From positions 3,472,001 to 3,536,000 of the forward strand of contig NC_043004.1 of assembly GCF_006345805.1 (NCBI RefSeq): a DNA stretch of 64,000 nt, in the 5' to 3' direction. A program made the position numbers and the translations under genes. This stretch comes from Octopus sinensis (Eukaryota). This document shows, one piece after another, positions 1 to 64,000 of this stretch; the stretch's first letter is position 1, and each line of letters starts with the position of its first letter. The notes beneath the pieces were generated by a model, which was given only the letters and a program-made list of their open reading frames with translations, ran no database searches and had not been told where the DNA came from.

Positions 1-386
1 TCGCCCGGCGTGCTAACAATTTACCAGCTCGCGGTAATCTGTGTATATTAAATGGGATCTACCCCTCACTGGATAGAATACCTTTTTTTTGTTTATCCCA
101 CAAACTGTAAACTATCTATGAGCAACCAACCCTATTCTCATAACGCAACTGTTCATACACACCGCGTTCGACACCGTATTCTGCACTCTATCAACCCATT
201 TCTTTAGAAAAAAGTTTGGCGTCGTTGGTTTTTTTTAGTCCCCTCCACCACCACCTTATTTCTTTACTCATTCTCTAGCGTTTCATTCTAATTTTTTTCC
301 ATTTCTCTTAGCTTTTGGTCATTTCGCGGTCGATACCAGTCGATGTAGTTTACTAGCATCTCTCAAATGAACGGTTATTTTTATAT

Positions 387-424
387 GCGCAGGAGTGGCT
401 GTGTGGTAAGTAGCTTGTCTAACC
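387..424 (+). mobile_element. 5' head (A-box part) of tRNA-derived SINE family B, interrupted by the LINE
   Basis: GCGCAGGAGTGGCTGTGTGGTAAG matches the start of the uninterrupted copy at 10863. Confidence 0.85.
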
Positions 425-811
425 TCACTGACAGAAGAGTGACTTTGCTTACCGTACTACGGTTTGGACGCGTTTTCTTCCCGGTAAGAGTTTTGCTGTG
501 TTGTTAATTGTTGAATTCCTACTACTGAAAATGTGCCTTTAAACGTTGCTGAACTGTCTTGTTCTCCGGTTTTACCGGGAAACAATTGAATAATTTCTTA
601 CCGTTGAACTGTTAGCCATTGTGGCTTTTTATTTACGTGACTATATATAGTCCTGCCAGACTATTTTCGTGCCCCTCCCCCGAATGGGGGGGGGAATTGG
701 AATTTTGAACTGCTTTTTTGAACTACTTTGGAAGAAAACTTTCTATAGGTTTCCCAGTTTTGTGGGAAACCAATATTCGTAATTTTTGTATTGTCTAATT
801 TCAACAGAATA

Positions 812-2214
812 ATGTCTGTTGAAATTATTCACGAAAGTAGTGCTCTTGGGGAGAGCAATGTTAAAAAATTTTCTGCAGTAGCCGCAGTGGCTACCGAGAA
901 CATTGACATCGATGTCAATCAGCTCGTCGAGCTATTTAAAAGAATGCAAGAGGAGGGTGGGGATGTTAAAATATCACCCTCCGCCAGTATCGTAGAGACC
1001 GAGAAGCGGACCGTAGTGTTTAAAACTTTCTGTCCACAAAGCAGAACGTTCAAACACTTTGAAAAAAAGCACCATCGAGAAATGCCTGTCCCCGATTTGG
1101 AAGGACATCGTGTACGTCACCAGGGGACGGGCGCATGGCACTGTGGATGTCCGCTTCACGGGGGAAGAAATGGCCCGCGGGCATTCTGTGAACCCCCTAA
1201 AAACCAAGGAGGTGGTACTTTTCCCAAGCTATAGAGGACGCAGGACGTCCCGGGTCAGGATTGTAGAAGCCCCGCCGGAAGTAGATCCGGTAGAGGTAGT
1301 GGCCGCCCTGTTATATAAAAGGGCGGACAAAATAAAAATACTTCAAGTAACATGCTCTACCCCCCTATTTTGGCTCGGGCGTAACATTAATATATTAATT
1401 CAAGGAACAGCGGAGGACCTGCAGCTCCTTCCTGAGAGGGTGCTCGTGGGCGAGAACGTAGCCCTCAGGGTACAGGTCGAAGGCCGAAAACCCACCTGTT
1501 ACGCCTGCGGCAAAAAGGGCCACATTCGTGTAGACTGTCCAGACAAGCAAAAGAAACCGCAGACACCAGGCCCCTCAGATAATAAAAAAGTCCCTACCCT
1601 TGCAAACACACCTACCCCTACAAAAACAAAAAATCCCACTCCTGCTGTTACGGTGCCAACCCCAAAACAGACTGAAGAAAAAACCCAGCCCTCGCACCAC
1701 AAACCCCTACACTATTAAAACCTCCCACCCCCTAAAAACTGCGGCGCCTACCGAACAAACTATTGCTACCCCAGACGATACCATGGAGGTATCAGAGGGG
1801 GGATTTACACCAGTTCGTAAAAGAATTCGTGCAGCATCCCCGTCCACATCCCCTACAAAAAATAATAAAAACAAGACACACCACAGACACGAAAAAAAAA
1901 ATCCCGCTCAACTGGCCCAGAAAAAGAAGACAAAAAAAGAAAATGAACTCATATTAATTGAATTCGACACACAAGACAAATACATAAACGATATTGTGGT
2001 TCAGCATCAGTCAGCAAGACTGTACAACAAATACAAAGATCGAAATAGACACGCGTGGATTGCGGAAACAACGTTCAAACAATTAAAAGACAGACACCCA
2101 AACGCCATCCGGCATATCGCGAACTTGCCGGACTATCTGAAGAAAGAGGAGAAAGAAGGGGCCCACAAACGTGTGGTGAGGTCGGCCCCCACCTCTCCAA
2201 CGAAATGTAAGTAG
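812..2214 (+). pseudogene. Tx1 ORF1 (gag-like nucleic-acid-binding protein), split over three frames
   Basis: ORF pieces 791-1234, 1059-1718 and 1600-2214. Zinc knuckle CYACGKKGHIRVDC. Aligns by eye to ORF1 of the second LINE (KTFC/KTYC, GTVDVRFT/GTVEVRFT, RTSR, EGRKP). Confidence 0.85.
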
Positions 2215-2231
2215 AACTTTTACTTTTTGTA

Positions 2232-5200
2232 ATGGCTTCGCTTAACCTTGGTTGTTTAAATGTGCGTGGTCTGAGTTCGAAGTGGAAGCAGGCTTGTTTC
2301 CTCGACGACCTCAGATCACATGATATACATGTGATGGTTGCTACAGAGACCAAGCTGGACAGCCTACAAACCTTCTCGCCTCTCCTGAATGGCTACGAGA
2401 AAATCATGTCTCCTAGCCAGACCGGAGGGCGAGGGGGCGTAGTGGTACTGATCCGTAAAGACTTGGCTCTACAGACAAGTACAGTCTATGTAGACCCAGA
2501 AGGTGGGCTGGTCGTCCTTGATGTGACATACAGCAGTAAGGCCTTCAGGTTGATCGGACTCTATGCACCTTGTGCTAGAGGTTTCCAAACTGATTTTTAT
2601 CGGCGCCTAGAGGGCTTTCTCGTGACGTCGAAGACTTTAGTGATATTAGGGGACTTTAATGCTATCGTTGACTACACATCGATAGCGTTGGCTCGATCTA
2701 TAGGAAAGTGAACTCACGTCTCGTGGATCTGCTTAAGCGGTTTCAGCTGGCAGATCGTTACAGACTTGACCATCCGAACGTCCCAGAGTGGACCTGGATG
2801 AGTGGCGACGGAAGGTTCAAGTCTTATCTAGACAGGATAGTGATAAGAACTAGAGATAAGTCTAGTTTTAGTTGTCCACAGCTCGTCCAGGTGCCCTATA
2901 CTGACCATAGAATGGTCACGTGTAGACTGGACATAGATAGCACACTTAAGATAGGAACCGGCTACTGGAAGCTGAACAAGTCTACTTTGACACGCGAGGC
3001 ATACCGTAGCCGGATTAAGGTGTTAGTGCAGAGGGCGTTAACCGGAGCCGTGGTTAATAACCGGTGGTGGTTCACCCTCAAAAGAGCCATTCGATTCGAG
3101 TCCATTAGATTTAATAAACAACTAAGACTAGATAGGGCTAGAATAGAAGGGCAACTAGTTAAGAACTTAGAGGAGGCGTTGAGGTTGGGCTCTGCATCTC
3201 ACATTTTAGCGGCGAGAACGGCATTAGACCGTCACCTCAAAACCAAACATGAGGGATGTAGAGTCCGGGCTAAAGTACGAGCATTGGGCCGTGAGGGAAT
3301 TAATGTTGCCGGATGGGCCCGTACGATAGAAACACAGCGTGGAAACGATGCCACAATTGGGTCTCTTGTTGATGAAAACGGATGCACGATAAAGAAGCGG
3401 GACGAGATGTGTGAGGCACTTCACAAGCACTTCGCCGAGTTGTTCGGGAGGTGCGGGACGCTGGATCATGGTGAGGCCCTTAGGGACTTCCTGTCTGGTG
3501 GCCCGCGCCTCTCGACACGAGAGGCTGAGTGCTGTGAAGGGCCAATCACAGCCGAGGAAGTAATCGAGGTGTTGGGCAAGTGCCCCGGGGAGAAGTCACC
3601 GGGTCTCGATGGTCTGCCCTATGAATTTTATAGAAGTATGCCAGACTTGTTCGAGCACCTGCTGGCTAGCGTCTACGCCAACTGGCAGCAGAATGGGAGA
3701 ATTCCCAAGTCTGCGAGCCGGGGGGCGGTGACGTTGATCAGGAAGGACCCGAACAAGGGGGACGAGATAGGGAATTCAGGCCCATAACTCTGTTAAACAC
3801 AGAGTTAAAGATTCTGGCCAAGGTGCTAGCAAAAAGGTTGGCGCGGGTCGTGGACAAACTTGTCGGGGAAGCGCAAACGTGCGCTATCCCCGGCAGAACG
3901 ATCCACGACAATCTCCACCTTATACGCTACTCCTTAGAGAGGGTGGGGAAGCTTTCTGGCGCAGGGGGAGCACTGGTACATTTAGACCAGTCCAAAGCAT
4001 TTGATAGGGTCGACCATCGGTACCTGGCGGCGGTCCTCGGAGAGGCTGGCCTAGGCCCGACCTTTCGAGGTTGGATCGCTGCTTTGTGTAGCGACATCGA
4101 GTCTGTAGTCAAGGTGAACGGTTCCTTTTCGAAGCCGTTCAGGATCGAGCGTTCAGTTCGTCAAGGATGTCCCCTGTCCTCGCTCCTATACGTATTGGCT
4201 CTTGAGCCTTTGCTGCGGAAGTTGGAGGCACTAGGGGGCGCGCCGCATGATCTATGGTGTGGAAGAGGAGCTACGGCGTATGCGGATGACACCTCCATCA
4301 TCGTGGCAGACGAAGGCCAGCTTCCAGTGGTGGAAGAGGCCATCAAAAGCTACGAGGCGGTGGCAGGAGCAAAGGTTAACAAGGACAAGTCGGTCGGTTT
4401 GCAACTCGGCACCTGGAGGGGCAAGCCGATGCCGTCCAATAACGTCGTAGGGCGTTGGACGGAAGGTCCTGTTAAGCTGCTCGGAGTCTGGTTCGGGCCA
4501 GACCTCCAGATTGAGAAAAATTGGAGTGAGGTGGCCAACAAGGTGACCGCTCTAACCCAGACCTGGTCTGGGCGGGCGTTATCCCTGCTAGGGAAGGCGG
4601 AGGTGGTGCAGATGTTTATAGCATCAGTAATCACCTACCGTCTGACCGTGGTGCCTTGCCCCGATTTGTGGCTGAACAAGTTGGAGAGAATCCTTTTCCG
4701 ATTTTTGTGGAAAGGAGGAAAGCCACTTGTAAAGCGCTCTGTCTGCTGCCAGAAACTGCTAAAGGGTGGGCTAGGGATGCCTTGGCTGAGGATGCGAAAA
4801 CTCGCGTTAAGGTTGAGGCACCTCTGGCTTTACCTGGATGGAGAGCAGGTGTGGTCACCGCACGTCCGGTTCTACCTTCCCCAGTTAACATCCCTAACGG
4901 ACATCGGTGCATGGATCAAGCGGAGACCTAAACTGAGTGAATGGCATTTGGAGTGCCGTCAGGCGCTCCAGCTACTATCTCGGGTGGGTAACGCCGGCAA
5001 CAGGAGTTCCACCACGGATTTCTATAGCGGGTTAGTGGAGATTAAGTCCGAAGACGCCTTGGGGGAGACCCTGGGCTACGATGAAAATCAGTTGGTCAAC
5101 CTGTTCCGGAGGACGTTCGGGCCGGGGTATCTGGATAATTACCAGAAATCCCTGACCTGGCAGTGTTTCCGTGCGGCTTTACCTGTTCGCGACAAGCTGT

Positions 5201-5631
5201 CAAGGCACGGTAGTGCCGTCTCGCCGACATGCCCGCGATGTGAGCAGGATAGGGAGACCGTCTTGCACGCATTCGTGGAGTGTCCGGAGTTATCGGGACT
5301 GATAGCTTTTGTTGAACAACTGTTGTCAGTGATGGGAAGAGTACAGCTATCAGCTGAGTCTATCATCGAGATTGTGCCGCCCCCTTTCCTTAACAGGGAA
5401 AGAAAGGCTTGTTTTTTCTGTGTAGTAGCCATACTGAAAGAAACAGTATGGAAGACGCGTACGAAAGGTATAGTGACAGGCACCTTTATCTCCGGCCAGG
5501 GGTTGATTAACTTTTTTAGTTACCACCTCAGTAGCAAAATCAGGCTGGAGAAGAGGTGTCTGTCACGAGATATGTTTGTGAAAAGATGGAAGCCTGTGGC
5601 ATACAAGATGGGTATGTTTGGCACCAGGTAA
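2232..5631 (+). pseudogene. Tx1 ORF2 (APE endonuclease + reverse transcriptase + zinc finger), two frameshifts
   Basis: EN motifs LNVRGL, ATET, GDFN, YLDRI, TDH. RT motifs KSPGLDG, DQSKAFD, RQGCPLS, YADD. C-terminal CPRC..ETVLH..C. Frame breaks near 2675-2710 and 3775-3790. Confidence 0.92.
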
Positions 5632-5859
5632 GTGTGACCGGATCAGAAAGTAAAGGTTCTACCCGGATGGCTGGGTGTCCGTCCTTCGACATGATCATTA
5701 ATATTTTTAAACATTGCCTTCGTAAAATTCATTGTTTATAATCTTATCCGTAATTTCATTCGAAAATTGTAACTGTGTTAAGCTACTTCACCCTTTATAT
5801 TTGTCTGTCCTTGTTTGTCCCCTCTTTGTAAATGCCTAAATGGCAAATTATATGAAATA

Positions 5860-6000
5860 AAGTAGTTTGCTTACCAACCACATGGTTTTGGGTTCAGTCC
5901 CACTGCGTGACACCGTGGGCAGGTGTCTTCTACTATAGCCTCGGGCCGACCAAAGAGTGAATTTGGTAGAGAGAAACTGAAAGACGTCCGTCGTATATAT
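5860..6000 (+). mobile_element. Continuation of the interrupted SINE family B copy
   Basis: CCAACCACATGGTTTTGGGTTCAGTCCCACTGCG... continues the family B sequence seen at 10890-11030. Confidence 0.85.
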
Positions 6001-6169
6001 ATATATATTTGACTGCGGCCATGCTGGAGCACCGCCTTTAGTCGAACAAATGGACCCCAGAACTTATTCTTTGTAAGCGTAGTAGTTATTCTATTGGCCT
6101 CTTTTGCCGAACCACTAATCGCTTTACTAATTCTTCCACGTAAAGTCAGGCGAAATACCGCTTAGCATT

Positions 6170-6482
6170 TCGCCCGGCGTGCTAACAATTTACCAGCTCG
6201 CGGTAATCTGTGTATATTAAATGGGATCTACCCCTCACTGGATAGAATACCTTTTTTTGTTTATCCCACAAACTGTAAACTATCTATGAGCAACCAACCC
6301 TATTCTCATAACGCAACTGTTCATACACACCGCGTTCGACACCGTATTCTGCACTCTATCAACCCATTTCTTTAGAAAAAAGTTTGGAGTCGTTGGTTTT
6401 TTTTAGTCCCCTCCACCACCACCTTATTTCTTTACTCATTCTCTAGCGTTTCATTCTAATTTTTTTTCCCTTTCTTTTAGCT
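6170..6482 (+). repeat. Near-identical direct repeat of window positions 1-~310
   Basis: TCGCCCGGCGTGCTAACAATTTACC...TTTCATTCTAATTTTTTTCC occurs at both places, differing in homopolymer length and about one substitution. Confidence 0.9.
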
Positions 6483-13908: not shown

Positions 13909-13971
13909 GGCGGCGAGCTGGCAGAAACGTTAGCGCGCCGGACGAAATGCTGAGCGGTATTTCGTCTGTCG
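13909..13971 (+). mobile_element. 5' head of tRNA-derived SINE family A, interrupted by the LINE
   Basis: GGCGGCGAGCTGGCAGAAACGTTAGC...GAAATGCTGAGCGGTATTTCGTCTGTCG matches uninterrupted heads at 24340, 27839 and 62365. Confidence 0.9.
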
Positions 13972-14134
13972 CACATGTGTTCGTGAAGTAAGAATTGCTG
14001 TTTCGTGGTGTTAATATTGTTAACAACTGTTGTTTCTTGTTAAACTGTTGAATAACTTAACTGTTGGAGTTTTCAATTGAAAACACTTAGTGCTTGTGGT
14101 AGCACGCGTTGTTCATTCCCCTTTGGGGGGAAGA

Positions 14135-15663
14135 ATGTCGTCTAGCATGGAGCCTACCGTTGGAGCAGAAATACTTGTTTCTCCTGTTGAGAGGAGGAAA
14201 TACATGTCCGGCGAGGAGCCAACTACAGACAAGGAAATAGGGGTTTCCCCCGCTACAAGAAGGAATAGCAGAGAGGATAATATATTTGATATTTTTGGAG
14301 ATGTGTCTGAGAGCTCGTCAGAACTTTCACCAGAAGAGTTTCCGACTTTGCCAGAGAACAAAGGCATTGTGTCGAAGAGAATAATTGATGTGCCTAGCAT
14401 CCAGATAGAACCAAAAAAAGGAAAAAAAAGTTTTGCGTTGGCTGCTGGGGGTGGAACCCAGATACTGTCGACGAATAAAAGCGAAATTATGAAATACAGC
14501 AAAATGATGGAAATAAATGACAACAGTGTGAAAATTGAACCTCCGCAAAAGTTATTACAGGAAGAAAAGCAAAAAACAATAATTTTCAAAACATATTGTC
14601 TACAAAATAGAAAAATTGAAAGAATGTCAGAAGAGAAAATAGAAAAGTGCTTAAAGCCAATATTGGGCGACGTAGTATTTCTGAGAAGAGGAAAAAAATT
14701 CGGAACGGTGGAAGTAAGGTTCACCAATAAAGAAATAGCACACAAGAACTCAGTGGAAACGTTGAAAACGAACGACGTGGAGTTAATACCCTATTATATG
14801 GGGATGAGGACGTCGCGAATAAAAATTACAAGGGTCCCGCCAGAGGTCGAACCTATGTGGTTGTTGGCGGCAGTCCTAATCAAAGAGGTAGAAAAAATTA
14901 CTCTCCTCCAGGCTACCGCTACGGAAAACCCACGCTGGGATGGTAAAACATTAATCTTCTCATTCAAGCGGACCCTAAAATAATTCAAACAATTCCTGAG
15001 ACAATTGAGGTAGGGGAGGAGAACCTCGTGGTGTTTGTTGAGGGCCGAAAACCTCGATGTTTTTTATGTGGTCAATTAGGCCACATTCGAAGGAACTGCA
15101 AGGAAAATGAAGAAGAGGAGGAAGAGGAGAAAAAAGACAAAGAGGAAGAAGATAAAGAAGAAACAGATGAGAAAAAAACAACAAACAAAAGAAAAATACA
15201 ACCAGCAACCCAGCCGAGAGCGGCGACTACTACAGAACAACGACCAAAAAAGACTGCCAGAAGAGAAAAAGAAGAAAAAGGCATAATAGCCGTATACACT
15301 AAAGATACTGAGCTCATGAGAGACATTCAACTCATAAAGACTGTAAAAAAAATTGATAACCTTTCAGAGGAATTTATCAATTACGACATATATGAAGTCT
15401 CAAATAAGACTTATAGAATTCTACAAAATAAGTACAGAAAGACTGTATCTTCATTGAGATTAGATTTTAACAAGTCGATATTTCATGGATTACCAGCTCC
15501 GATCCCGCGAGAAAAGGAAAAGGTGGAGATTCCCCCTCCACCTGATAATTCTGTGTCGGTGGTGAGACGGGATTTTGACAAATCTATTTCCCAAGACCGT
15601 CCACCTCCGACCCTGGATAAAAAAAAGGTGGAGGGTCCCCCTCCACCGGACAATCCTAATTAA
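14135..15663 (+). pseudogene. Tx1 ORF1 with one frameshift near 14960
   Basis: ORFs 14090-14983 and 15028-15663. Zinc knuckle CFLCGQLGHIRRNC, acidic linker, Pro-rich C-terminal repeats. Confidence 0.85.
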
Positions 15664-15671
15664 ACAGGTAA

Positions 15672-18600
15672 GTGATGGCTATTCACATTGGTTGTTTAAA
15701 TGTTCATGGCCTGTTGTCAAGCTGGAAGCAAGGACGCTTTCTGAATGACATCAGGTCGAGAAATTTGGATGTAATTGTTGCAACGGAAACCCGGGTGAAG
15801 GGGCCAAGAGATCTGCTCCCCCTCCTGAACGGCTACGAGAAATACGTTTCTCCGAGTCGGGCGGGAGGTGGGGGTGGGGTGTTGGTCCTACTAAAAAGAA
15901 ACCGGGTAGCCGAGAAAAAGTTGGTTTTTTCTGACCCAGAAGGCAGGCTGGTCGTTCTCGACTTGACATTCAGTTGTGGCAAGACAATCAGGCTGGTCGC
16001 TATTTATGCACCAAACATTATTGGCCCGCAAACTGAATATTTTCGTGGCCTAGGAAAGTTCCTAGCCACGTCGCATTCACTAGTAGTGTTAGGAGACTCT
16101 AATACAATATGTGCAGCACACACAGATTGTGTTGGCTCAAACTCGAACATGAACAGAAAATGTAACACAGGCTTTCGGGATCTGCTAAGTCAATTTCAGC
16201 TAGCAGATCCATATAGGTTGGAGCACCCGAACACTCCACAGTGGACGTGGTCAAATAGTGACGGGTCTACCAGAACATATCTAGATAGGATTTTAATTAG
16301 AGAAAAAGATAAGTCCATAGTTGAGTGTCCACAGTTTTTTCTAGTCAGCTACAGTGACCACAAGATGGTTACCTGTAAACTGACGGTAGATAAGTTGCAT
16401 AGACAGGGATCTGGCTACTGGAAACTCAATACGTCCCTTTTGGCGATTGAGGAGTACAGAAAGCGGATCAAGATGTTAATACAGAGGGCATTAACAGGTA
16501 CCATCATTAATAACAAATGGTGGTACGCCCTAAAAAGAGCCATCAAATATGAGTCTATTAGGTTTAGCATAAGTTTAGCTAAGAAGGGACGTAAAATAGG
16601 AGATGGTCTAGTTAAGGAACTAGAAGAAGCCTGGAGGACTGGTAATACAGACCAAGCGAGGGTGAAAAGACTGGAGTTAAACCAGCATCTTGAAGCCCAC
16701 CACATGGGAAGTATTACCAGAGCTAAGTTACGTGCAATGGGAAGTGAAGGAATCAAAGCCGCTGGATGGGCCCGAGTGGTGGAAGCTCGGCAAGGAAATA
16801 GTTCCTCTATTCGGTCTTTGACGAATCAAAATGGTGTCTTGATAAACGAACCCGAGAAAATGTGTGAGGTCTTTCGGGAGTACTTCGCCCAGCTGTTCGG
16901 GGGTGACGGCGGTCCTGGTGGTGGGAGAGCCCTCGAGGACTTTCTTACCGGGCTGCCGTGCCTCTCGGGGTCGGATGCGGAGTCTTGCGAAGGGCCAATC
17001 ACACTTGAGGAGGTGATGGAGGCTTTGGCCGATTGTAAAGCGGGTAAGTCACCGGGACTTGATGGTCTTCCGTACGAGCTGTATAAATGTATGCCAGACT
17101 TGTTCGGGCAACTACTGACTGACGTGTACGCGAACTGGAAACAGAATGGGTTTATCCCCAGATCTGTGCGCCGGGGAGTAGTGACGTTGGTCAGAAAGGA
17201 CCCGGACAAGGGGGACGTTCTAGAGAATTTCAGGCCCATCACTCTGTTAAACGCAGAAGTGAAGATTTTGGCCAAGGTTCTAGCAAAAAGGTTGGCGCGT
17301 GTCGCGAATGGTATAGTCGGGGAGGCACAGACATGTGCCATCCCAGGCAGAACCATTCAGGATACCCTCCATCTTATTCGCTATACCATAGAGAGGTTTG
17401 GTAATAAATCTGGCAAAGGTGGGGCATTGGTGCATTTGGACCAGTCTAAAGCTTTTGATAGGGTTGACCATCGATACCTAGCGACTGTACTTGCGCGGTT
17501 TGGCCTGGGCCTTGGCTTCCTCAGGTGGTTTATCGCTTTGTACCACAACATTGACTCGATAGTTCGGGTGAACGGTTTCCTTTCGAAGCCGTTCTGCATC
17601 AGACGCTCGGTTCGTCAAGGATGTCCGCTTTCACCACTTTTGTATGTGATGGCTCTCGAGCCATTACTGCAAAGGTTGAGTGGCATCCCGAGAGAACCAG
17701 GACTAGAGGAGTTTGTTACGGCTTTCGCGGATGATATCACTATCAGTGTAACCACAGTGGTACGCCTACGTGAAGTAGGTAAGACTATTGAGGCTTACGA
17801 GGAGGTAGCAGGAGCAAAGATTAACCGGGAAAAGTCGGTCGGCTTGCAGCTCGGCACCTGGGTTGGCAAGTCGATGCCTTCAGACAGTGTTGTTAGGCGC
17901 TGGACGGAGGGACCGGTTAAGTTGCTGGGAGTCTGGTTTGGACCAGGCCTCCAGATAGAGAAGAACTGGACGGAGGTATTGAGCAGGGTGGCTGCAGTAG
18001 TCAAGACTTGGTCTTGGCGGTGGCTATCCCTGAAAGGGAGGGCGGAAGTGGCCAATGTGTTTATCGCATCGGTCATTACCTACCGCCTGACTGTCGTGCC
18101 CTGTCCGGATTCGTGGTTGATCAGGTTGGAGAGACAGCTCTTTCGCTTTTTGTGGAAGGGCAGGTCGCCACTTGTGAAACGCTCTGTCTGCTGTCAAAAG
18201 CCTTTAAATGGAGGTTTAGGGATGCCTTGGTTAATGATGCGCAGACATGCGTTGAGGTTGAGGCACCTCTGGATTCTCCTGGATAGTGAACGGGTGTGGT
18301 CTCCGCTGGCCAGACAAATGTTCCCTGAGTTCAAGAGTTTTTGCGAACAGGAAGCCTGGTGTTCTCGTAGACCGAGGTCGAGTGAGTGGCATAAAGAGTG
18401 CCGTAAGGCCCTCTTGCTGTTCCGGCGCTCGGGCAACGCCAGCGGTGGGGGTTCCACACGGATTTTATATAGTGGGTTGGTAGAGTCTGAATGCGACGAT
18501 GGCCTGGGGTCGACTCTAGGTCTCGGATTTATTCAACTGGACAGCTTGTTTCATCGTACATTCGGGTTGAGAACGTTGGACAACTTCCAAAAGTCCTTAA

Positions 18601-19076
18601 CCTGGCAATGCTACAGAGGTGCCTTGCCCGTTTGGGATAAGCTCGCAAGACATGGTAAACGTCAGTCGCCGACCTGTCCAAGATGCGGTGGGGACAGGGA
18701 AACCGTCCCTCACGCTATTGTTCAGTGTCCGGAGATAACTGAAATGTGGGCTTATGCTGAACATCTGTTGTCCGGCGAAGGAAGAGTACGGCTGTCGACT
18801 GAGTCAATTATAAAAATTGACCCACCGGGAGTTCTAACGAACGAAGGTAAGAATTGTTTTCTCACGGTTGTAGCAATAGCAAAAGAGGCTGTATGGAATA
18901 CTAGGATAAAAGGAATTAAGACAGGCAACTTTATCTCTGGTGACAATTTACGATCCTTTTTTTCTTTTCATTTGAAAAGGAAACTGTGGCTGGAGAAGAG
19001 GTGTCTGTCAGAGTGTACGTTCCAAAAGAGATGGAAGTATGTTGCACGAGTGTTGTGCGTGCAAGGAACCGTGTGA
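15672..19076 (+). CDS. Tx1 ORF2: APE endonuclease-reverse transcriptase, 1134 aa, uninterrupted
   Basis: LNVHGL, ATET, GDSN, YLDRI, SDH; KSPGLDG, FRPITLLN, DQSKAFD, RQGCPLSP, FADD; CPRC..ETVPH..C. Confidence 0.95.
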   Translation: MMAIHIGCLNVHGLLSSWKQGRFLNDIRSRNLDVIVATETRVKGPRDLLPLLNGYEKYVSPSRAGGGGGVLVLLKRNRVAEKKLVFSDPEGRLVVLDLTFSCGKTIRLVAIYAPNIIGPQTEYFRGLGKFLATSHSLVVLGDSNTICAAHTDCVGSNSNMNRKCNTGFRDLLSQFQLADPYRLEHPNTPQWTWSNSDGSTRTYLDRILIREKDKSIVECPQFFLVSYSDHKMVTCKLTVDKLHRQGSGYWKLNTSLLAIEEYRKRIKMLIQRALTGTIINNKWWYALKRAIKYESIRFSISLAKKGRKIGDGLVKELEEAWRTGNTDQARVKRLELNQHLEAHHMGSITRAKLRAMGSEGIKAAGWARVVEARQGNSSSIRSLTNQNGVLINEPEKMCEVFREYFAQLFGGDGGPGGGRALEDFLTGLPCLSGSDAESCEGPITLEEVMEALADCKAGKSPGLDGLPYELYKCMPDLFGQLLTDVYANWKQNGFIPRSVRRGVVTLVRKDPDKGDVLENFRPITLLNAEVKILAKVLAKRLARVANGIVGEAQTCAIPGRTIQDTLHLIRYTIERFGNKSGKGGALVHLDQSKAFDRVDHRYLATVLARFGLGLGFLRWFIALYHNIDSIVRVNGFLSKPFCIRRSVRQGCPLSPLLYVMALEPLLQRLSGIPREPGLEEFVTAFADDITISVTTVVRLREVGKTIEAYEEVAGAKINREKSVGLQLGTWVGKSMPSDSVVRRWTEGPVKLLGVWFGPGLQIEKNWTEVLSRVAAVVKTWSWRWLSLKGRAEVANVFIASVITYRLTVVPCPDSWLIRLERQLFRFLWKGRSPLVKRSVCCQKPLNGGLGMPWLMMRRHALRLRHLWILLDSERVWSPLARQMFPEFKSFCEQEAWCSRRPRSSEWHKECRKALLLFRRSGNASGGGSTRILYSGLVESECDDGLGSTLGLGFIQLDSLFHRTFGLRTLDNFQKSLTWQCYRGALPVWDKLARHGKRQSPTCPRCGGDRETVPHAIVQCPEITEMWAYAEHLLSGEGRVRLSTESIIKIDPPGVLTNEGKNCFLTVVAIAKEAVWNTRIKGIKTGNFISGDNLRSFFSFHLKRKLWLEKRCLSECTFQKRWKYVARVLCVQGTV

Positions 19077-19325
19077 ATAGACGAGGAAAAAAAAAAAAAA
19101 AGGAAAAATAAAAAGGTATCAGCGGTAGATCGGGGCTTGTGGGATCGGAGCGTAACTTGATCATCGCTTCATTTGTATTGTTTTTGTACTGTGTATTCCA
19201 TTCGATTTTTATGTATTGTATTTTATTTTTGATGTCACATTTATGTAAAATCATATCGATTCACTGATCCCATCAGTTGTACTGTCCATATCTATGTTTG
19301 GCCCCCGGTGGGCAATAAAGAAATT

Positions 19326-20005
19326 GGTATTTCGTCTGCCGTTACGTTCTCAGTTCAAATTCCGCCGAGGTCGACTTTGCCTTTCATTCTTTCGGGGTCG
19401 ATAAATTAAGTACCAGTTACGCACTGGGGTCGATGTAATCGACTTAATACCTACGTCTGTCCTTGTTTGTCCCCTCTATGTTTAGCCCCTTGTGGGTAAT
19501 AAAGAAATAGGTATTTCGCCTGTCTTTACGTTCTCAGTTCGAATTCCGTCGAAGTCGACTTTGCCTTTCATCCTTTCGGGGTCGATAAATTAAGTACCAG
19601 TTACGCACTGGGGTCGATGTAATCGACTTAATACCTACGTCTGTCCTTGTTTATCCCCTCTATGTTTAGCCCCTTGTGGGTAATAAAGAAATAGGTATTT
19701 CGCCTGTCTTTACGTTCTCAGTTCGAATTCCGTCGAAGTCGACTTTGCCTTTCATCCTTTCGGGGTCGATAAATTAAGTACCAGTTACGCACTGGGGTCG
19801 ATGTAATCGACTTAATACCTACGTCTGTCTTTGTTTGTCCCCTCTATGTTTAGCCCCTTGTGGGTAATAAAGAAATAGGTATTTCGCCTGTCGTTACGTT
19901 CTCAGTTCGAATTCCGTCGAAGTCGACTTTGCCTTTCATCCTTTCGGGGTCGATGAATTACGTACCAGTTGCATACTGAGGTCGATCTAACCGACTTGCC
20001 CCCGA
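19326..20005 (+). repeat. Tandem array of SINE family A: three 184-bp units plus the remainder of the host SINE
   Basis: Units start at GGTATTTCG at 19326, 19510, 19694 and 19878. Each full unit ends in AATAAAGAAATA. Confidence 0.92.
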
Positions 20006-21584: not shown

Positions 21585-23078
21585 TCATACACACACACAC
21601 ACACACAATCAACAAACAACCAAACAACCAAACAATCCTTTGATAATATCAACGAAAGTTTGTTCTATTTCTTCCACAATTGTTTCTCTAGATTTATGAG
21701 ATTTATGCTATTCTATGATTCCTGTTAATTTTCCGACATTATTTGGCGTTGCCTTTCAAATTCTTTGCGCTTGTTTTTTTTTTCTTGTTTTTTTTTTTTT
21801 TTTTGTATATTGTTTTGCTTTGTTTTATTTCGGGATGTGTGTTTTTTTTTTGTAATTTGCTAGGAATTATCTTGCATATTTATTGCAAAATTAGGACGGA
21901 ATATAATGGAAAATCGCTATCAAAACTTCGGATTAATTTGAGCAGAGAATATGATATCTACCAATGTGATGTTTGCCATGAGGTTTTCTGCTCTTATTGT
22001 TTTCACATCTCTGTCGATCGGTGTCACGTGTATTACCTTGTAGTTAACCCTTAGAAAACGGAATTGGTTTCCTTCAAACCAACGAATGGATCTAAACATC
22101 TTGGTTGTACGAAAAATTTCTTTCATTCATATTTCCTACACTCTTTCTCTTTTACTTGTTTCACTCATTTGACTGCGGCCGTGCTGGAGCACCGCCTTTA
22201 GTCGAAGAAATCGAACCCCAGGACTTATTCTTTGTAAGCCTAGTACTTATTCTATCGGTCTCTTTTGCCAAACCGCTAAGTTACAGGGACGCAAACACAC
22301 CAGCATCGGTTGTCAAGCGATGTTGGGGGACAAACACACACACACACACACACACACAATCAACAAACAACCAAACAACCAAACAATCCTTTGATAATAT
22401 CAACGAAAGTTTGTTCTATTTCTTCCACAATTGTTTCTCTAGATTTATGAGATTTATGCTATTCTATGATTCCTGTTAATTTTCCGACATTATTTGGCGT
22501 TGCCTTTCAAATTCTTTGCGCTTGTTTTTTTTTCTTGTTTTTTTTTTTTTTTGTATATTGTTTTGCTTTGTTTTATTTCGGGATGTGTGTTTTTTTTTTG
22601 TAATTTGCTAGGAATTATCTTGCATATTTATTGCAAAATTAGGACGGAATATAATGGAAAATCGCTATCAAAACTTCGGATTAATTTGAGCAGAGAATAT
22701 GATATCTACCAATGTGATGTTTGCCATGAGGTTTTCTGCTCTTATTGTTTTCACATCTCTGTCGATCGGTGTCACGTGTATTACCTTGTAGTTAACCCTT
22801 AGAAAACGGAATTGGTTTCCTTCAAACCAACGAATGGATCTAAACATCTTGGTTGTACGAAAAATTTCTTTCATTCATATTTCCTACACTCTTTCTCTTT
22901 TACTTGTTTCACTCATTTGACTGCGGCCGTGCTGGAGCACCGCCTTTAGTCGAAGAAATCGAACCCCAGGACTTATTCTTTGTAAGCCTAGTACTTATTC
23001 TATCGGTCTCTTTTGCCAAACCGCTAAGTTACAGGGACGCAAACACACCAGCATCGGTTGTCAAGCGATGTTGGGGGA

Positions 23079-23085
<7 letters not shown>
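21585..23085 (+). repeat. Tandem duplication of ~750 bp with breakpoints in (CA)n
   Basis: Identical ORF translations 748 bp apart (21920/22668, 22105/22853). Each unit includes a SINE B 3' fragment. Confidence 0.9.
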
Positions 23086-24339: not shown

Positions 24340-24670
24340 GGCGGCGAGCTGGCAGAAACATTAGCATACGGGACGAAATGCTTAGCGGTATTTCGCCTGC
24401 CGTTACGTTCCGAGTTCAAATTCTGCCGAGGTCGACTTTGCCTTTCATCCTTTTGTGGTCGATTAAATAAGTACCAGTTACGCACTGGGATCGATATAAC
24501 CGACTTAATCCGTTTGTCTATCCTTGTTTGTCCTCTCTGTGTTTAGCCCCTTGTGGGTAGTAAAGAAATAGGTATTTCGTCTGTCTTTACGTTCTGAGTT
24601 CAAATTCCGCTGAGGTCAACTTTGCCTTTCATCCTTTCGGGGTGGACTAAATAAGTACCAGTTACGTACC
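24340..24670 (+). mobile_element. SINE family A dimer (head + 184-bp unit + partial unit)
   Basis: GGTATTTCG at 24387 and 24571. Junction AAAGAAATA|GGTATTTCG. Confidence 0.9.
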
Positions 24671-24679
24671 AACCAGGAC

Positions 24680-27000
24680 GTAATAAAACTGAGTTGTGTT
24701 TCAATATCTGAAGAGAAATGATAGGAGATGGCAGCCGTGATTATAATGATGCAGACAAATTAGCCGATGTACGAAGAGACATCATGTGTAATAACCGTCA
24801 AACACCAGCAGAATTAGAGGCAATAAAAATAATTCCACTACCACGTCAGAAAGTCAAGCTGAAGCGCAATAATGAAGAGGAAAACATTCAATCTGTTGAT
24901 AGAGACATCCTTGAACATGAGGTTGACGCAGATAACTTAGAACCTGAAGTAGTAGGTGGCCAAACTGAAAGTAAAGTAACAGAAAGTAGGAACGAACCTG
25001 AAGCCACAACGGCGGACACATTTGCTGAAGTGAATGGAGAAAAAATACTTGAGACAAAAAACGATATCCTGAGAGAACTGAGCATTTCTAAACATCTAGA
25101 AATGAATGAGAGGGATCATCTGCTTTAGAACACCAAATCAAATCACTGTACGATTAAACTATATGACTATGCCCTGAAGCAGCTTCTCCTTGAAACTGGG
25201 ACGGATTTAACCTCCTTAAACCATCTTTTATACTCAACAGTTATTGCTGCCACAAAGAAAATAGTCGTCAAAGAAAAAGGTTCACAAAAAAGTAAACGAA
25301 TGCGCAAGGTGGAAAGGGTGCATAAATAAGGAAATAGAGATCTTCCGAGGAGAATTATCGATCTTAGACGAACTCTCCAAAAGAAATAATGTAAAGACAA
25401 AAATGTCTAGAAAGATGAAGTGAAAATACAATCTGATAAACGTGAATAAAGTACTGAGATCAAAAGAGATGGTGAAGCAAAAAATGCAGATTAAGGCTCA
25501 ACGCTTACGCAAGTACGAAAAGAGGAACAAATTTCACAAACAAAATAAGGTATTTAAAACTGATGCTAAGAAATTCTGCAGAGAGTTAGAGAAACAGTCG
25601 ATCGAAGTAAAAGACCCGCCTGATATGAAAGAAGTAGTGACATTTTGGAAAAGCATATGGAGCGATAGAAATAAATTCAACAAGTTGAATGAACAGAGAG
25701 TGAAGAAGGAAGAATGGCTAAGATTGAAGAACAAGGATGGAAGAATATTACAATGCAAGAACTATCCAAAGTTCATATGTGGGAGTCTCCTGCACATGAT
25801 GAAATCACAAACGTCTGGCTTAATAGCCTCTCATCATCACACCGTCAGTTAATGGAATGTTCCCCTAACATCATCAGAAACCCCGAAAAGACTCCAAGAT
25901 GGCTTTCATTAGGGGTAACATACCCACTCCCTAAAGCGAACGACACAAAAAAAACCCAAAATAACTACAGGCCGATCACTTGTTTGACTAAAATGTACAA
26001 TCACTTACATCCATCCTCACCGAAAGGATGCACCAATTTCTCGATGCAAACAACATCCCTGAACAAAAAAGGGTGCAAAAGAAACTCATACAGACGCAAA
26101 GACCATCTATTAATAAACCATTGATACTCGAAAATTCCTTATCCAAAAGATGAAATCTTAGCACAGCATGGATTGACTATCGTAGGGTATTTGACAGTGG
26201 CAATCTGGCAGAAACGTTCGCACGCCGGGTGAAATGCTTAGCGGTATTTCGTCTACCGTTACGTTCTGGGTTCAAATTGCGCCGAGGTCTACTTTGCCTT
26301 TCATCCTTTCGAGGTCGATTAAATAAGTACCAGTTACGCACTGGGGTCGATGTAATCGACTTAATCCCTTTGTCTGTCCTTGTTTGTCCTCTCTGTGTTT
26401 AGCCCCTTGTGGGTAGTAAAGAAATCGGTATTTGACAGGGCCCCACATAGCTGGAATTTAAAGACACCAGATATATACAAGATCTCTTCTTTCGTGACTG
26501 TGGCGGTAAAAATGCATTGGAATGTTAACCGACTGTATGGATTCTAAGAGACAGAAAAAAGTTATGAAAAAAGATAAGCTGTGATGGGGAATAATAATTA
26601 TGAAGTTTTTACATTTTCCCCATGAAGACTGGTCATGCAATTGACGCAAAGCGACCAGATTATGATTAGAGAGGACAAAAGAAACAAACAGTATAAAGTC
26701 ATAGCCATACCATATGATAACAGAGTAGATATCAAAGAGATTGAGGAAACTGTGTCTATCAGGATCTCGCAAGATATATTAAGAGATTGCGGAAGACGAA
26801 GGTGACAAATGTTCCCGTCGCAATGGATGCACATGGCAAAACACTCAAAAGGCTGTCTATGAGGCTGAAGAATGTTAGAATTGAGATGCACATTGTCCAC
26901 CGGCAGAAAAGTGCCTTCGTGTATTTTACAAGAGTCCTAAGACTTGTTACCAAACTTCAGGATAACATCCCTGGTTATTAAATCAACATATAACAGTTTA
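24680..27000 (+). mobile_element. Decayed R4/Dong-like non-LTR retrotransposon
   Basis: QRLRKYEKRNKFHKQNKVFKTDAKKFCREL, NYRPITCL, KGCKR, AWIDYRRVFD..PHSW, and a C-terminal RLE (IAIPYDNRVD.KE...QKSA). Many stops and frameshifts. Confidence 0.75.
26198..26426 (+). mobile_element. SINE family A monomer with Tx1-like tail and 12-bp TSD
   Basis: GGTATTTGACAG at 26186-26197 and 26427-26438. Confidence 0.9.
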
Positions 27001-27795: not shown

Positions 27796-27838
27796 TATAT
27801 CAGCTTCTTATATTTTACATTATAATGCCACACATAGA

Positions 27839-28715
27839 GGCGGCGAGCTGGCAGAATCGTTATTACGCCGGGCGAAATGCTTAGTATTTTGTCTACCCCT
27901 ACGTTCTGAATTCAAATTCCCCTGGGGTCGAATTTACATTTCATCCCTTCGGGGTCGATAAATTAAGTACCAGTTGCGTACTAAGGTCGATCTAATCGAC
28001 TGATTCCCTCCACCAAAATTCCCCCGGTGTCTACTTTGCCTTGTATCCTTTCAGGGTCAATTAAACAAATACCAGTGACGCACTGGGGCCGATGTAATTG
28101 ACTTAATCCCTAATTTCAGGCCTTGTGCTTCCGGTAGAAAGGATTATGATACCATACATTACATTATATTGGCTTCAAATTTCGGCACAAAGCGAAGAAT
28201 GCCGCCGAGGTCGACTTTGCCTTTCATCCTTTCGGGGTCGATTAAATAAGTACCAGTTACGCACTGGGATCGATGTAATCGACTTAATCCCTTTGTCTGT
28301 CCTTGTTCGTTCTCTCTGTGTTTAGCCCCCTGTGGGTAGTAAAGAAATAGGTATTTCGTCTGCCGCTATGTTCTGAGTTCAAATTCCGCCGAGGTCAACT
28401 TTGCCTTTCATCCTTTCGGGGTCGATAAATTAAGTACCAGTTACGCACTGGGGTCGATATAATCGACTTACTCCGTTTGTCTGTCCTTGTTTGTCCCCTC
28501 TGTGTGTAGCCCCTTGTGGGCAGTAAAGAAATAAGAAACGTTAGCACGCTGGGCGAAATGCTTAGCGTTCTCAGTTCAAATTCCGCTGAGGTCGACTTTG
28601 CCTTTCATCCTTTCGGGATCGATAAATTAAATACCAGTTGCGTACTAGGGGCGATCTAATCGACTGGTCACCACTCCCCTAAAATTTCGGGCCTTGTGCC
28701 CCAAAGTAGAAAAGA
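27839..28715 (+). mobile_element. Cluster of SINE family A copies, including tandem units 28200-28349 and 28350-28533
   Basis: Repeated CTTTGCCTTTCATCCTTTCGGGGTCGAT core. Tails end AAAGAAATA at 28349 and 28533. Confidence 0.85.
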
Positions 28716-35239: not shown

Positions 35240-35442
35240 CACTAAAGGCCAGAAATTTTGGAGGAGGGGATAAGTCGATTATAATTGACCCCAGTGTTTC
35301 ACTGGTACTTAATTTATCGATCCTGAAAGGGATGTAAGGTAAAATCGACCTCGACAAAATTTGAACTCAGGACGTAGCGTTGGGCGAAATACCGCTAAGC
35401 ATTTCGTCCGGCGGGCTAACGATTCGGCCAGCTCGCCGCCTT
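35240..35442 (-). mobile_element. SINE family A copy with the alternative (non-Tx1) 3' end
   Basis: Reverse complement of head and core, ending ...AAAATTTCTGGCCTT. Confidence 0.8.
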
Positions 35443-40287: not shown

Positions 40288-40601
40288 ATCTATCTATCTA
40301 TCTATCTCTCTCCCTCTTCTCTCTCCCCTTCCCTTCCCTCCATCCTCTTCCTCTATCCCTCTCTCTATAAATCCGTGGGTCTATATATCAGTCTATTTAT
40401 CAATTTATCAATTTATCTCCCGATCAGTCTAATTATATTTTTTCTGAAATATAATATACTCACTCGCTTAAATTTATACACACCTGCACACACATACACA
40501 TATATACACATATGCCTGCATATACATCGATTTCAAATTTTGGCACAAGGTCAGCAAGTCTGGGGTGGGGTGAGTCGATTACATCAACCCTGAAAGGATA
40601 A

Positions 40602-40753
40602 CTTTCTTTATTGGCCACACAAGGCTGAAATACAGAGGGGACAAATACAAATGTAAAGCTTTTCTTTTCGAAGATGGAAAAAGAAAAGAGGAAACAAAAA
40701 AGGAAACAAATGTAAAATTCCGATCAAAAGGGATCAGAAAAAAAAGGAAAAAA
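40602..40753 (-). mobile_element. Short 3'-UTR-only copy of Tx1 family 3 inserted in a minus-strand SINE A (40530-40860)
   Basis: TTTCTTTATTGGCCACACAAGGCTG...GCTTTTCTTTT...GATCAAAAGGGATC matches 63117-63280. Imperfect TSD GAAAGGATAA / GAAAAGATGA. Confidence 0.75.
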
Positions 40754-42679: not shown

Positions 42680-43340
42680 AGGAAAACAGCAACATGACGC
42701 AATTCACTCTGCCAGAAATTTGGAAACGAAATGCTGTATTGCTTGGCATTCGCGCTGGAAACTCCAATGCGAACATTTCAAAGTGTTTGTGTGTCAGTCA
42801 GAGGACTGCAATCTGAGGACATGCACCGAGAGTGATAAAAATCAAACATCCAGTCAACATCATGCTGTTTGGAGTGATCACAACTAGTGATGGCGGCGTT
42901 ATGCCTCCATTCATCCTCCCACACTGGAGGCATACCGTCGCCGTCACTAATGATCACTCCAAACACCATGATGTGGACTAGATGTTTGATTTTTATACCA
43001 CTCGGTACATATCATCAGACTCAACACGAAAGCCTACATCAAGTGCCTGGAGGAGGTAATGCTGCCCTGAGTCAAGAGGGTTACTGCTGGAAGACCCTAC
43101 GTTTGGCAACAGGTGCCTGCACCATGCCACACATGCAGGAGAACCCAGTCATGGCTGACAGACAATTTCTGCAACCACATCATCCCTAACATCTGACCAC
43201 CTAACTCCCCAGGCTGCAACCCCCTTGGTTATTATGTGTCGGACGCAGTTGAGTGAGAGACCAACAAAACTGTACTCGTTTGTATTTCAAGATATTTTTG
43301 TGTAATTTTGGTAAATATATCTGTTAAAATTGAGATGTCA
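42680..43340 (+). mobile_element. Decayed Tc1/mariner-superfamily (maT-like) transposon
   Basis: KHPVNIMLFGVI..DG.VMPPF; YIKCLEEV.LP; YVWQQ..APCH; PPNSPGCNPLGYYV. Confidence 0.7.
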
Positions 43341-44347: not shown

Positions 44348-44394
44348 CAGAATGGGATCTCTAAGCAGTGATAAGTAAAATTGTAATATTATCC

Positions 44395-44981: not shown

Positions 44982-44986
44982 CGAGT

Positions 44987-48699: not shown

Positions 48700-50250
48700 T
48701 TACCAAAGGAACATCGGATAAAGGGCAGTGGAGGCACGAGGTATTGCAAAGACATGGGAAAGTTCAACCACAGTGGGTCTAGTCCGACTCCCAGAAGAGG
48801 CTAACAGGAGATGGACCGACTGACCACTGGAGAACTCCCGTTTTACGTGAAGAGCAGAAGTTCCAATCTAGTCAAACGAAAACTGAGGCAGAGAACGATG
48901 GCAGGGCGATAATTTATGATGGCTAGGGCGATACACATAATTGGTACCTCAACTCGAACGTTCAGGGATAGCTTCCTTTCAGCCCATTTCTGTCCGTTAC
49001 CTTGACCCAGCTCCTGTTTATCTGCCGGTGGTTCAATTACCACCTGCAGGCAGACAGATTAATCAGTTCGTTTTTCCGACGTCCCACAACGCTCTCCAAT
49101 GTCATAGACGTGCTTTTCAACGTACCACGCTGCATAACCATCGATTTGTTCCGAATTTATCATCGCTTTTAACTCGTATTCTTTTACAGTGTGCTGTCCA
49201 AACGCACCAACTCCAAACGAATGATTCTCTACACTTGTAGCTTCTGTAGTTATAACTCGATAACCTATTTCTTTACTACACACAAGGGGCTACACACAGA
49301 GGGGACAAACAAGGACAGACAAACGGATTAAGTCGATTATATTGACCCCAGTACGTAACTAGTACTTAATTTATCGACCCCGAAAGGATGAAAGGCAAAG
49401 TCGACCTCAGCGGAATTTGAACTAAGAACGTAAAGACAGACGAAATGCTTATTTCTTTACTACCCACAAGGGACTACACACAGAGGGGATATACAAGGAC
49501 AGAAACATGGATTAAGTCGATTATATCGACCCCAGTGCGTAACTGTTACTTATTTAATCGACCCCGAAAGGATGAAAGGCAAAGTTGACATCGGCGGAAT
49601 TTGAACTCAGAACGTATCGGCAGACGAAATACGGCTACGCATTTCTCCCGGCGTGCTAACGTTTCTGCCAACGCGTAGGAGAGATCAGAAAAGACACCGC
49701 AGGTTAAACGAGCATGCAATATGTAGCTTCTAATCGGTGACTGTTCACTTTTACCTGACGCAGATATGAGTCAATCTCTGGAAACAGGTTCGAAAGCGAC
49801 CGATTTTACGATTACTGCCAAGAAGCGATGGCCAGCTTTATCGAAAGCATTCAATGGATCCAAGCAAGGTTTGTTTCCTATCCTCTCTATGATGCATAGC
49901 ATGAGATAAATATTGTTGTGGTTGGAGCTATCGGGGGTTGCACTTATTTGTGCTTTTTCGTCCTTACCCTCGACAACAAACACCTACCATTTGGCGCGCC
50001 GGCAATGTTGTGTCTGCCTTTCGGTAACCTGGCCTCTCTCTGTGTCAACTGTGCACACCACAAATTTGCGGTAATGTTTTTTTATTGTCGTTCACATCCA
50101 GTGCTACAGATCAAGGATTATCCTATGGACCTCTGAATTCAATACTTCCCTCTACAGCACTGCAACTCCGCCGCACAATCACGTCAGACCACAAAATGAG
50201 TCAAAATGAGTACGCATGAGCGTTACGTATTTTGGTGTCGGGAATGGCTA
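48700..50250 (-). mobile_element. Old decayed Tx1-like ORF2 remnant
   Basis: AQISATP..S.HNNIYL...IERIG..LD..NAFDKAGHRFLA and KWAERKLSL..RVEV...I.YR..IV.C...LTRLE.LLF align to ORF2 of the two full-length LINEs. Confidence 0.7.
49266..49673 (-). mobile_element. SINE family A dimer with Tx1-like tails, 184-bp period
   Basis: TATTTCTTTACTAC at 49266 and 49450. Head at about 49630-49673. Confidence 0.88.
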
Positions 50251-63114: not shown

Positions 63115-64000
63115 TGTTTCTTTATTAGCCACACAGGGCTGCACACAGATAGAACAAATTACAAGGTAGAGCTTTTCTTTTGAAGGTTTAAAAAAAATAA
63201 AATAAAAAAAATTTTTTAATAAAAAATAAAATAAAAATAAAATAAAATAAAAAGGGGGGGGTCGATCAAAAGGGATCGTAAAAGAGAGAAAGAGGACAAA
63301 AAAAAGGGGGGGTTAAAAAAAAGGGGGAGAGGAAAAAAATTGATCAATAGGGATCGTTATCACAGAAATGTCAATATGAAGTGTAAAGGGGAGGACAGGT
63401 GAGGTTTACCCGTGGAAAGAAAAGCCTACGGAAAAGACCACGGTAACCTCGGTCAATGAAGTCACATGTTATATTTCTTTTTTTTTTTTTTTGCAAATAA
63501 GCAACTCTCTGTATTATTTTTACGGTTCATAGAATCATAGTCAAGGTGGCTTCGTCATTCATACGTGCCATCCTTGCTACATTCACCCATCTTTTTTTAA
63601 AACATTCACTAGACTAAACTTGCCTCTCTACTCTCACTTTTTTCTTCAAGTGATACTTGAAGAAGTTGATGAGAGATTGACCAGAGAGGAAAGTGTTTGT
63701 CTCTAATCCTTTCAGACGCGTCCACCAGATACATTCTTTCGCCATAGCCACAAGTATGATAAAAATAGCTTTCCTTCCCGTTTGAAGGAAGGAGGCGTGA
63801 CGATATTAACGATAGACTCGGCTGATAAACCGCACCGTCCCACACGTGACAGCAGTCGTTCGACATAAGCCCACAGGTGGGAAATTGCTGGACACTGCAC
63901 GATTGCGTGCAGAGCGGTTTCGTCGCTCTGCCCGCATCTCGGGCAGGTCGGCCCCGTGTTTCTCGAGCCATGCCTATAGAGCTTATCCCGAACGGGTAGC
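63115..64000 (-). mobile_element. 3' end of a third Tx1-clade LINE (runs off the window)
   Basis: Frameshifted ORF2 C-terminus (QCPAISHLWAYVERLLSRVGRCGLSAESIVNIVTPP). 3' UTR ends AGCCCTGTGTGGCTAATAAAGAAACA next to (TATC)n. Confidence 0.88.

Follow-up and report, generated by a model that had tools for sequence, protein, structure and literature searches.

A conserved 3' stem-loop shared by L1/Tx1-like LINEs and a SINE of Octopus sinensis is a likely template signal for the ORF2 protein

Animal elements of the L1 clade are textbook examples of relaxed, poly(A)-primed LINEs. In the stringent L2 pairs UnaL2/UnaSINE and ZfL2-1/ZfL2-2, recognition of the 3' stem-loop by the ORF2 protein (ORF2p) has been shown (Hayashi et al. 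2014, PMC4176376). Stringent L1 lineages have so far been described in plants and algae, namely LINE1-1_ZM of maize and sorghum with ZmSINE2/3, and L1-1_CR of Chlamydomonas with SINEX-3 (Ohshima 2012, PMC3472496; Ohshima 2013, PMC3747384), and whether stringency is ancestral is an open question. Tx1-type systems include crocodilian Tx1-Mar with SINEU, Tx1L in Tx1D, and Kibi and Koshi (Kojima 2015, PMC4494074). For SART1Bm and R1Bm, it was proposed that the 3' end of the RNA carries a few target-like bases, which base-pair with the nicked strand and so position the start of reverse transcription (Nichuguti and Fujiwara 2020, PMC7265360). We found no Tx1-tailed SINE and no Tx1 LINE-SINE pair in the literature searched; Repbase, Dfam and SINEBase lie outside it and may hold such families. 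The portions of PMC13282606, PMC4758252, PMC11481361 and PMC5786205 available to us likewise mention no Tx1-tailed SINE.

Here, we analyzed a 64,000-nucleotide stretch of the Octopus sinensis genome (GCF_006345805.1, NC_043004.1, positions 3,472,001 to 3,536,000), hereafter the window. An initial annotation had placed a terminal hairpin in three LINE families and a SINE, and we confirmed it at 19301-19325 in LINE2, at 5833-5859 in LINE1, at 63115-63140 on the minus strand in LINE3, and in the tails of SINE A. Judging from the sequences, the 3' stem-loop of this clade is likely a signal by which ORF2p chooses its template, and SINE A, which carries the tail, likely rides on several LINEs. The last ~55 bases of the L1/Tx1-like LINEs would fold into a conserved RNA stem-loop; the ORF2 protein would pick its template by this structure, binding it as in L2 elements, and reverse transcription would start 12-14 bases downstream.

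LINE2 (13972..19325, plus strand) is a full-length, young, L1/Tx1-like element with its ORF2 at 15672-19076 (+). The 3' hairpin at 19301..19313 (+) has a 4-bp stem and a 5-nt loop, and is followed by a 12-nt A-rich end (19314..19325, +), which contains AATAAA and whose final base adjoins the target junction. The element splits a SINE A head, the 5' part of which lies at 13909..13971 (+). Target-site duplications were found at 13956-13971 (+; 5' copy, in part LINE2's own leader) and 19326-19341 (+; 3' copy). The 3' target copy opens a SINE A tandem at 19326..19997 (+), composed of 184-bp units, all of which begin at the base where LINE2 lands; a hairpin tail is missing from the final unit. LINE1 (418..5859, +) is full-length, frameshifted and L1/Tx1-like, with a 5' edge uncertain by ~7 nt. 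Its tail (5800..5859, +) consists of a 26-nt tract equal to SINE A, a hairpin at 5833-5845 and a 14-nt end, and the element splits SINE B into a head portion (387..417, +) and the 3' part that was its target (5860..6000, +; without hairpin tail). The 3' end of LINE3 (63115..64000, minus strand) has its hairpin at 63128-63141 with a 6-nt loop and runs into a (TATC)n array; this copy is 5'-truncated and extends beyond the window.

Pfam domains of LINE1 and LINE2 comprise a zinc knuckle (zf-CCHC) in ORF1, which is frameshifted in the window copy of LINE2, and an APE endonuclease, a reverse transcriptase (RT) and zf-RVT in ORF2. The nearest PDB match of ORF2 was human L1 ORF2p (E 4e-64, vs 1e-20 for R2). 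By their sequence, LINE1 and LINE2 have what defines the L1 superfamily: APE, RT, a C-terminal zinc finger and an L1-like ORF2. A CCHC zinc knuckle in ORF1 is a feature of the Tx1 clade, and the targets found here are of Tx1 type, being repeats, small-RNA-like heads or microsatellites, all with target duplications. The nearest named relative of the RT region was a hypothetical protein of Argonauta hians (62%). Since no named Tx1 protein was among the matches of the protein searches, the Tx1 label rests on architecture and target specificity. LINE3 is a relative of LINE1 and LINE2.

Protein searches of the 2.72-Gb genome, together with 40 retrieved regions of divergent matches, revealed additional families; these and the Argonauta protein group together in a single clade (FastTree support 0.999, with alignment rows query-anchored and partial for old copies). 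Several copies carry an intact 1,134-aa ORF2. The tail is retained between families that are 53-80% identical in ORF2, and all family ends except two interrupted ones consist of a U/G-rich tract, the hairpin and an A-rich end. The covariance model proposed in the initial annotation was built; its search added five tail types, and covariation held across 14 distinct stems. Among 80 distant metagenomic relatives (25-43% identity), many of them represented by loci without a 3' end, the model detected no tail, and its single match was weak and on the wrong strand (E 0.56). The hairpin signal is common to a clade, not family-specific.

Two further observations concern these families. In F4 (L121-L127, L240, L249, L250), we found head-to-tail arrays with shorter elements that have a near-identical hairpin tail and another 3' UTR, and are probably ORF1-only passengers. 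The sites taken by more tailed families are (TC)n, positions beside (ATC/ATT)n, and a further shared repeat (L147-L152, L160; L369:4292-4347; L143-L145).

For the test of covariation, 20 tails were compared, all from this genome: 13 named families or subfamilies with ORF2, SINE A, one fragment and five model-found types, which gave 14 distinct 4-bp stems. The loop was anchored on an invariant U and its length left free at 4-6 nt. Pairing was kept at 53/56 positions of the 14 distinct stems, vs 42.8 with arms swapped (0/100,000 swaps reached this value), and at 49 of 52 in 13 tails (arm-swap p = 2e-5), these controls and the shuffles ignoring relatedness among tails. Because loop length was free, some of the apparent compensation may be an inner pair gained or lost by a shift of register. 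An unfitted MAFFT alignment gave a covariation score of 0.287 vs 0.127 shuffled (0/500), with slid controls at 0.01-0.17; two-sided change was seen in 13 cells vs 4.8 shuffled, and slid partners were lower. On the ORF2 tree, the two outer stem pairs changed ~5-6 times each. By these comparisons, the upper 3' stem covaries across the clade, and the covarying stems that had been claimed for the three LINE families and the SINE were borne out. Folding of single tails was no better than that of shuffles (z -2.1 to +0.5), and the best fold of the F4 tail differs from the shared hairpin. A lower stem of UCU with AGA appeared in the best fold of 8/12 tails, but was not supported as a covarying helix: where present it is invariant, never changing in both arms at once, and F4 and the LINE1 lineage have lost its pairing.

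A shared end of this kind could also be a neutral leftover, inherited by common descent or spread among young repeats by gene conversion, and its pairing incidental. The 26-nt identity between LINE1 and SINE A could be conversion, and short G/C-rich arms often pair by chance, swapped arms pairing 4/4 in 35% of cases. Yet the last ~55 nt are kept while the remaining 3' UTR diverges freely between families, stems of quite different sequence are still paired, and the stem-to-junction distance is fixed (12 nt in LINE2, LINE3 and the SINE, 14 nt in LINE1). We consider a neutral relic very improbable.

The initial annotation had also reported that the LINEs lack a poly(A) tail. This proved correct for all 90 LINE ends inspected (30 each of LINE1, LINE2 and LINE3), none of which had a run of at least 6 A after the hairpin; the sample comprised the best-scoring, youngest copies among 351, 530 and 2,004 candidates. 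Since AAUAAA is present in most tails, in several families 12 nt before the junction, the LINE RNA may nevertheless be polyadenylated. The LINE2 end is covered by contigs of four presumed-RNA runs, although contigs cannot show RNA ends.

We found that each family has a fixed landing site, a feature that goes beyond the initial annotation. LINE2 joins one base of the SINE A head in 52/52 distinct copies, found by UTR or protein. In all 10 full-length copies, a SINE head lies upstream, the two flanks carry one and the same target allele, and the junction base agrees with it. The SINE units 3' of 43 LINE2 copies all differ (0/903 pairs at >=98%), so the LINE2 copies are separate insertions without transduction; carriage of the downstream SINE by 3' transduction was rejected on this count. 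LINE1 is followed by AAGTAG in 30/30 copies, 28 of which continue as SINE B, and LINE3 directly by TATCT in 27/30. Target duplications begin immediately after the tail. Neither hallmark of relaxed, mammalian L1-like elements was seen, be it poly(A) of variable length or, for LINE2, 3' transduction.

The conserved end might instead be mainly a 3'-processing signal, a U/G-rich tract plus AAUAAA that the hairpin merely presents, with reverse transcription starting wherever the RNA pairs with the target and no structure-specific binding by ORF2p. In LINE2, LINE3 and the majority of families, AATAAA does follow the stem immediately, that of LINE1 forms across the target junction, and missing 3' transduction is expected if RNAs end shortly past the tail. 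However, the commoner SINE A allele, AGTAAA (115 vs 78 of 193), has multiplied successfully; Pol II processing gives a Pol III SINE no reason to keep a hairpin, and both of its stem alleles still pair; and poly(A) was never copied into the ends. We judge a pure processing signal improbable. Precise ends, a shared covarying 3' stem-loop and missing poly(A) are the hallmarks that stringent recognition leaves in a genome. The stringent RT-recognition signal put forward in the initial annotation is partly supported; it would be clade-wide and not specific to a family.

At the 5' junctions of LINE1 and LINE2 copies, the first 7-16 bases look like the element's own target, often with differences from the 3' target copy (L161-L180); by these front bases the element brings a fresh landing site along. 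In one 5'-truncated LINE1 (L178), the 5' flank resembles reverse-strand tRNA sequence, not the SINE B head. No marker within LINE1 separated the SINE B alleles, and none separated C- from G-landing copies in the main LINE2 lineage, which uses both alleles.

SINE A tails numbered 45 in 600 kb sampled at round coordinates, which extrapolates to roughly 200,000 in the genome. Copies are 230 bp long with target duplications, and A- and B-box-like motifs in the head, which would suit a tRNA-derived SINE, were judged by eye; ARAGORN and Rfam gave no match for SINE A. It may correspond to one of the published octopus SINEs OK, OR1 or OR2. Rfam also returned no hammerhead ribozyme at gathering score in the window, and a hammerhead or circular-RNA (retrozyme) origin of the SINE tandem was rejected on this result. 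In the window, SINE A tails end at 19509, 19693, 19877, 24570 and 28533 on the plus strand and at 49266 and 49450 on the minus strand. The tail at 19455..19509 (+) has U at the stem foot and comprises the U/G-rich tract, a hairpin at 19485-19497 and the A-rich end, and the tail at 28476..28533 (+), of the C variant, abuts a different SINE A head at its second (A-box) site. A copy at 24340..24669 (+) includes head, body and tail (to 24570), after which a second unit begins; a solo copy lies at 26199..26426 (+) with a 12-bp target-site duplication beginning GGTA; and a dimer with two tails lies at 49263..49670 (-).

The initial annotation had further proposed that the SINE tail was captured from a Tx1 3' UTR. 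The tract at ~5800-5825 in LINE1 that it described as shared with the SINE is identical to the SINE A tail at 28476-28501 over 26/26 nt. Compared with 14 LINE tails, the SINE A tail has 36-47 of 56 bases identical, F4 being the best with 47, and is a mosaic of an upstream tract like LINE1 and a hairpin like F4. A sibling SINE has the same head and body and another tail (27838-28020, 35254-35441 and 62365-62538 in the window), and is more diverged (median identity 82% vs 92%); the 600 kb held 35 bodies of sibling type vs 39 with the hairpin tail. Because this older sibling has the same body with another tail, capture of a LINE tail by SINE A is supported. The proposal of capture thus stands in this respect, but the tail is mosaic and the exact donor was not found: in 30 of 373 candidate matches examined, no LINE with ORF2 was present (28 mutated SINEs, one internally deleted SINE and one lone tail). 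A LINE3-like 3' fragment with hairpin tail at 40600..40750 (-) interrupts an older SINE A-type copy within its body; this insertion has joined a SINE head to a LINE tail and indicates a route by which capture can happen. SINE A would have gained its tail from a LINE 3' UTR in place of an older one; going by sequence, the tail is LINE-derived and mosaic.

Duplications were obtained for 34/100 SINE A ends. They measure 11-26 bp, with one of 38 in a microsatellite, and their first bases, directly adjacent to the tail, are GGTA, AG(A/T)A, TATA or TATC. These motifs of several LINE families point to cross-use of the SINE by LINEs. We rejected GGTA after solo SINEs as a fixed read-through end, as most are real target duplications. 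In the 600 kb, 17/44 readable SINE A ends join, by our reading, one of two sites in the SINE A head. Exact head-in-head junctions of SINE in SINE numbered 99 vs 0 in the control, some with private duplications (L163/L006, L208). SINE A shares the LINE2 site and lands more loosely than LINE2 does. In three cases (L103, L362, L363), the SINE A tail is joined to a reverse-strand SINE A body at GGTA, which makes three landing sites, this one antisense. Some arrays consist solely of SINE A heads, with a 65-66 bp period (L184-L188; G000:C10988), and mirror the head-less 184-bp arrays.

The base at the stem foot of SINE A is U or C and pairs either way (G-U or G-C). This base was linked to landing class, which is also new relative to the initial annotation. 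Exact genome-wide counts were 8,246 for C+AG, 3,209 for C+GG, 3,612 for U+AG and 45,125 for U+GG, the last cell inflated by tandem SINE units that are not independent events; over these 60,192 ends, from which those starting TA were left out, the odds ratio was 32. Among 10 variable columns in 193 tails, the stem base was the best predictor (p 1.5e-18), and a column nearer the end was weaker (p 2.5e-4). The unselected 600 kb agreed, with 13/15 C ends in the A class, and 16/29 U ends at GG and 2 in the A class. Nested SINEs lay in G-type heads in 25/26 cases. LINE2 occupied C-type heads in 31/52 cases vs 8/41 C among random heads, and a LINE2 sublineage was on the C allele in 13/13 copies vs 18/37 of the remainder (p 0.0007), its endonuclease being unchanged in 2 full-length copies. 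Age may explain these allele biases, because the SINEs that carry a LINE2 insertion are on average a little younger than SINEs overall (0.896 vs 0.874). In U-class duplications, G was present only in the 3' copy in 4/18 and the reverse in 2/18, in a sample that was partly end-selected; bases templated by an RNA tag are thus scarce.

Simple tail matching fails to explain the link in the SINE, given that LINE2 itself carries C and still inserts at GG/CG sites. The link is consistent with read-through tags able to pair with the primer, a mechanism suggested for SART1Bm and R1Bm (PMC7265360). The endonuclease would nick short motifs, and the few read-through bases behind the tail would take the part of poly(A) by annealing to the nicked strand. 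Against such tags speak the scarcity of tag-templated bases, the use of both alleles by the main LINE2 lineage, and age as a possible confounder. The tags may derive from the SINE's own head, GGUA on U-variant and AGAA on C-variant SINEs, and each source lineage would thus tend to re-land at the type of site from which it came. Pairing by such tags is the weakest step of the mechanism, and we hold it to be a serious possibility that falls a little short of probable. More tentative still is the notion of an inherited guide, in which read-through bases would make target choice a memory carried by the RNA, not a property of the endonuclease, with the SINE both riding on and hosting the LINE.

A live rival to the tags is choice of partner by the stem base: the hairpin would be the signal, and U or C would be read by different LINE families with their own endonuclease preferences, or else the U and C variants had separate periods of activity and used different LINEs. 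The base beats nine other markers, and its association with the A class is seen on several backgrounds; GGCA is common to the C variant and the LINE1 lineage, and LINE1-lineage targets likewise start AG. The hairpin loop of the L1 endonuclease has a role in target specificity. Here, the stretch aligned with that loop is nearly the same across families with different targets, which argues against partner choice. In its favor, the specificity of Tx1L was assigned to the endonuclease (PMC4494074), and cognate specificity is known for ZfL2, although it lies in the loop there (PMC4176376). Partner choice is also at odds with LINE2, which has C and lands at GG-type sites, with F4, which has U and is itself followed by CA-type sequence, and with the GG landings of SINEs, which are far looser than those of LINE2. 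We regard it as rather unlikely.

Several repeats of the window were noted beside these elements. About 610 bp 3' of LINE1 (5860-6466; the 3' half of SINE B plus flank) recur at 97.7% just upstream of the window (window 1-291 and 5860-6466, L441:8685-9298), ~95 bp ahead of the SINE B head in which LINE1 sits; the copy could reflect a local duplication, a long transduction or an assembly artefact. A 474-bp repeat of 100% identity lies at 21860-22333 and 22608-23081, 748 bp apart. An inverted repeat pair of 950 bp (94%) lies at 45508-46460 and 59727-60667, 13 kb apart, and self-complementary stretches at 44392-44984 (~590 bp) and 42812-43019 (~210 bp) are MITE-like or foldback.

This young, intact, high-copy animal clade, with 14 stem variants and several targets, makes the ancestry of stringency testable in one system. 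If landing follows the read-through bases, this would explain the frequent target switches of Tx1-type families and the self-nesting of the SINE, and a LINE could perhaps have its insertion site steered by RNA.

By analogy, the octopus system may work like the stringent LINE-SINE pairs of L2 and maize L1. As in the L2 pairs, LINE and SINE share a 3' stem-loop with an upper and a putative lower stem and a variable loop. The L2 pairs belong to the L2 clade, end in short terminal tandem repeats and have strict cognate specificity (PMC4176376), whereas the octopus elements are L1/Tx1-like, have no terminal repeat of their own, use one tail type across families and land at fixed sites. As in the maize and algal L1 elements, whose last 45-50 nt are conserved, there is a hairpin with compensatory changes and there are tail-sharing SINEs, and the argument is genomic in both. 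SART1Bm and R1Bm are of the R1 clade with a single fixed host target, while an octopus lineage would take over its tag from the site where it landed last, and tags would vary from lineage to lineage. Among Tx1 systems, SINEU with Tx1-Mar comes closest. The likeness to Tx1-Mar/SINEU, Tx1L, Kibi and Koshi lies in a Tx1 target that is a transposon or microsatellite, a SINE that shares the target of the LINE, and tandem SINEs. SINEU differs in having poly(A), and SINEU-1 is described as without a LINE-like 3' half in Repbase (PMC4494074). Finally, the target of Tx1-Mar and SINEU is a DNA transposon, whereas in octopus the target is the passenger SINE itself.
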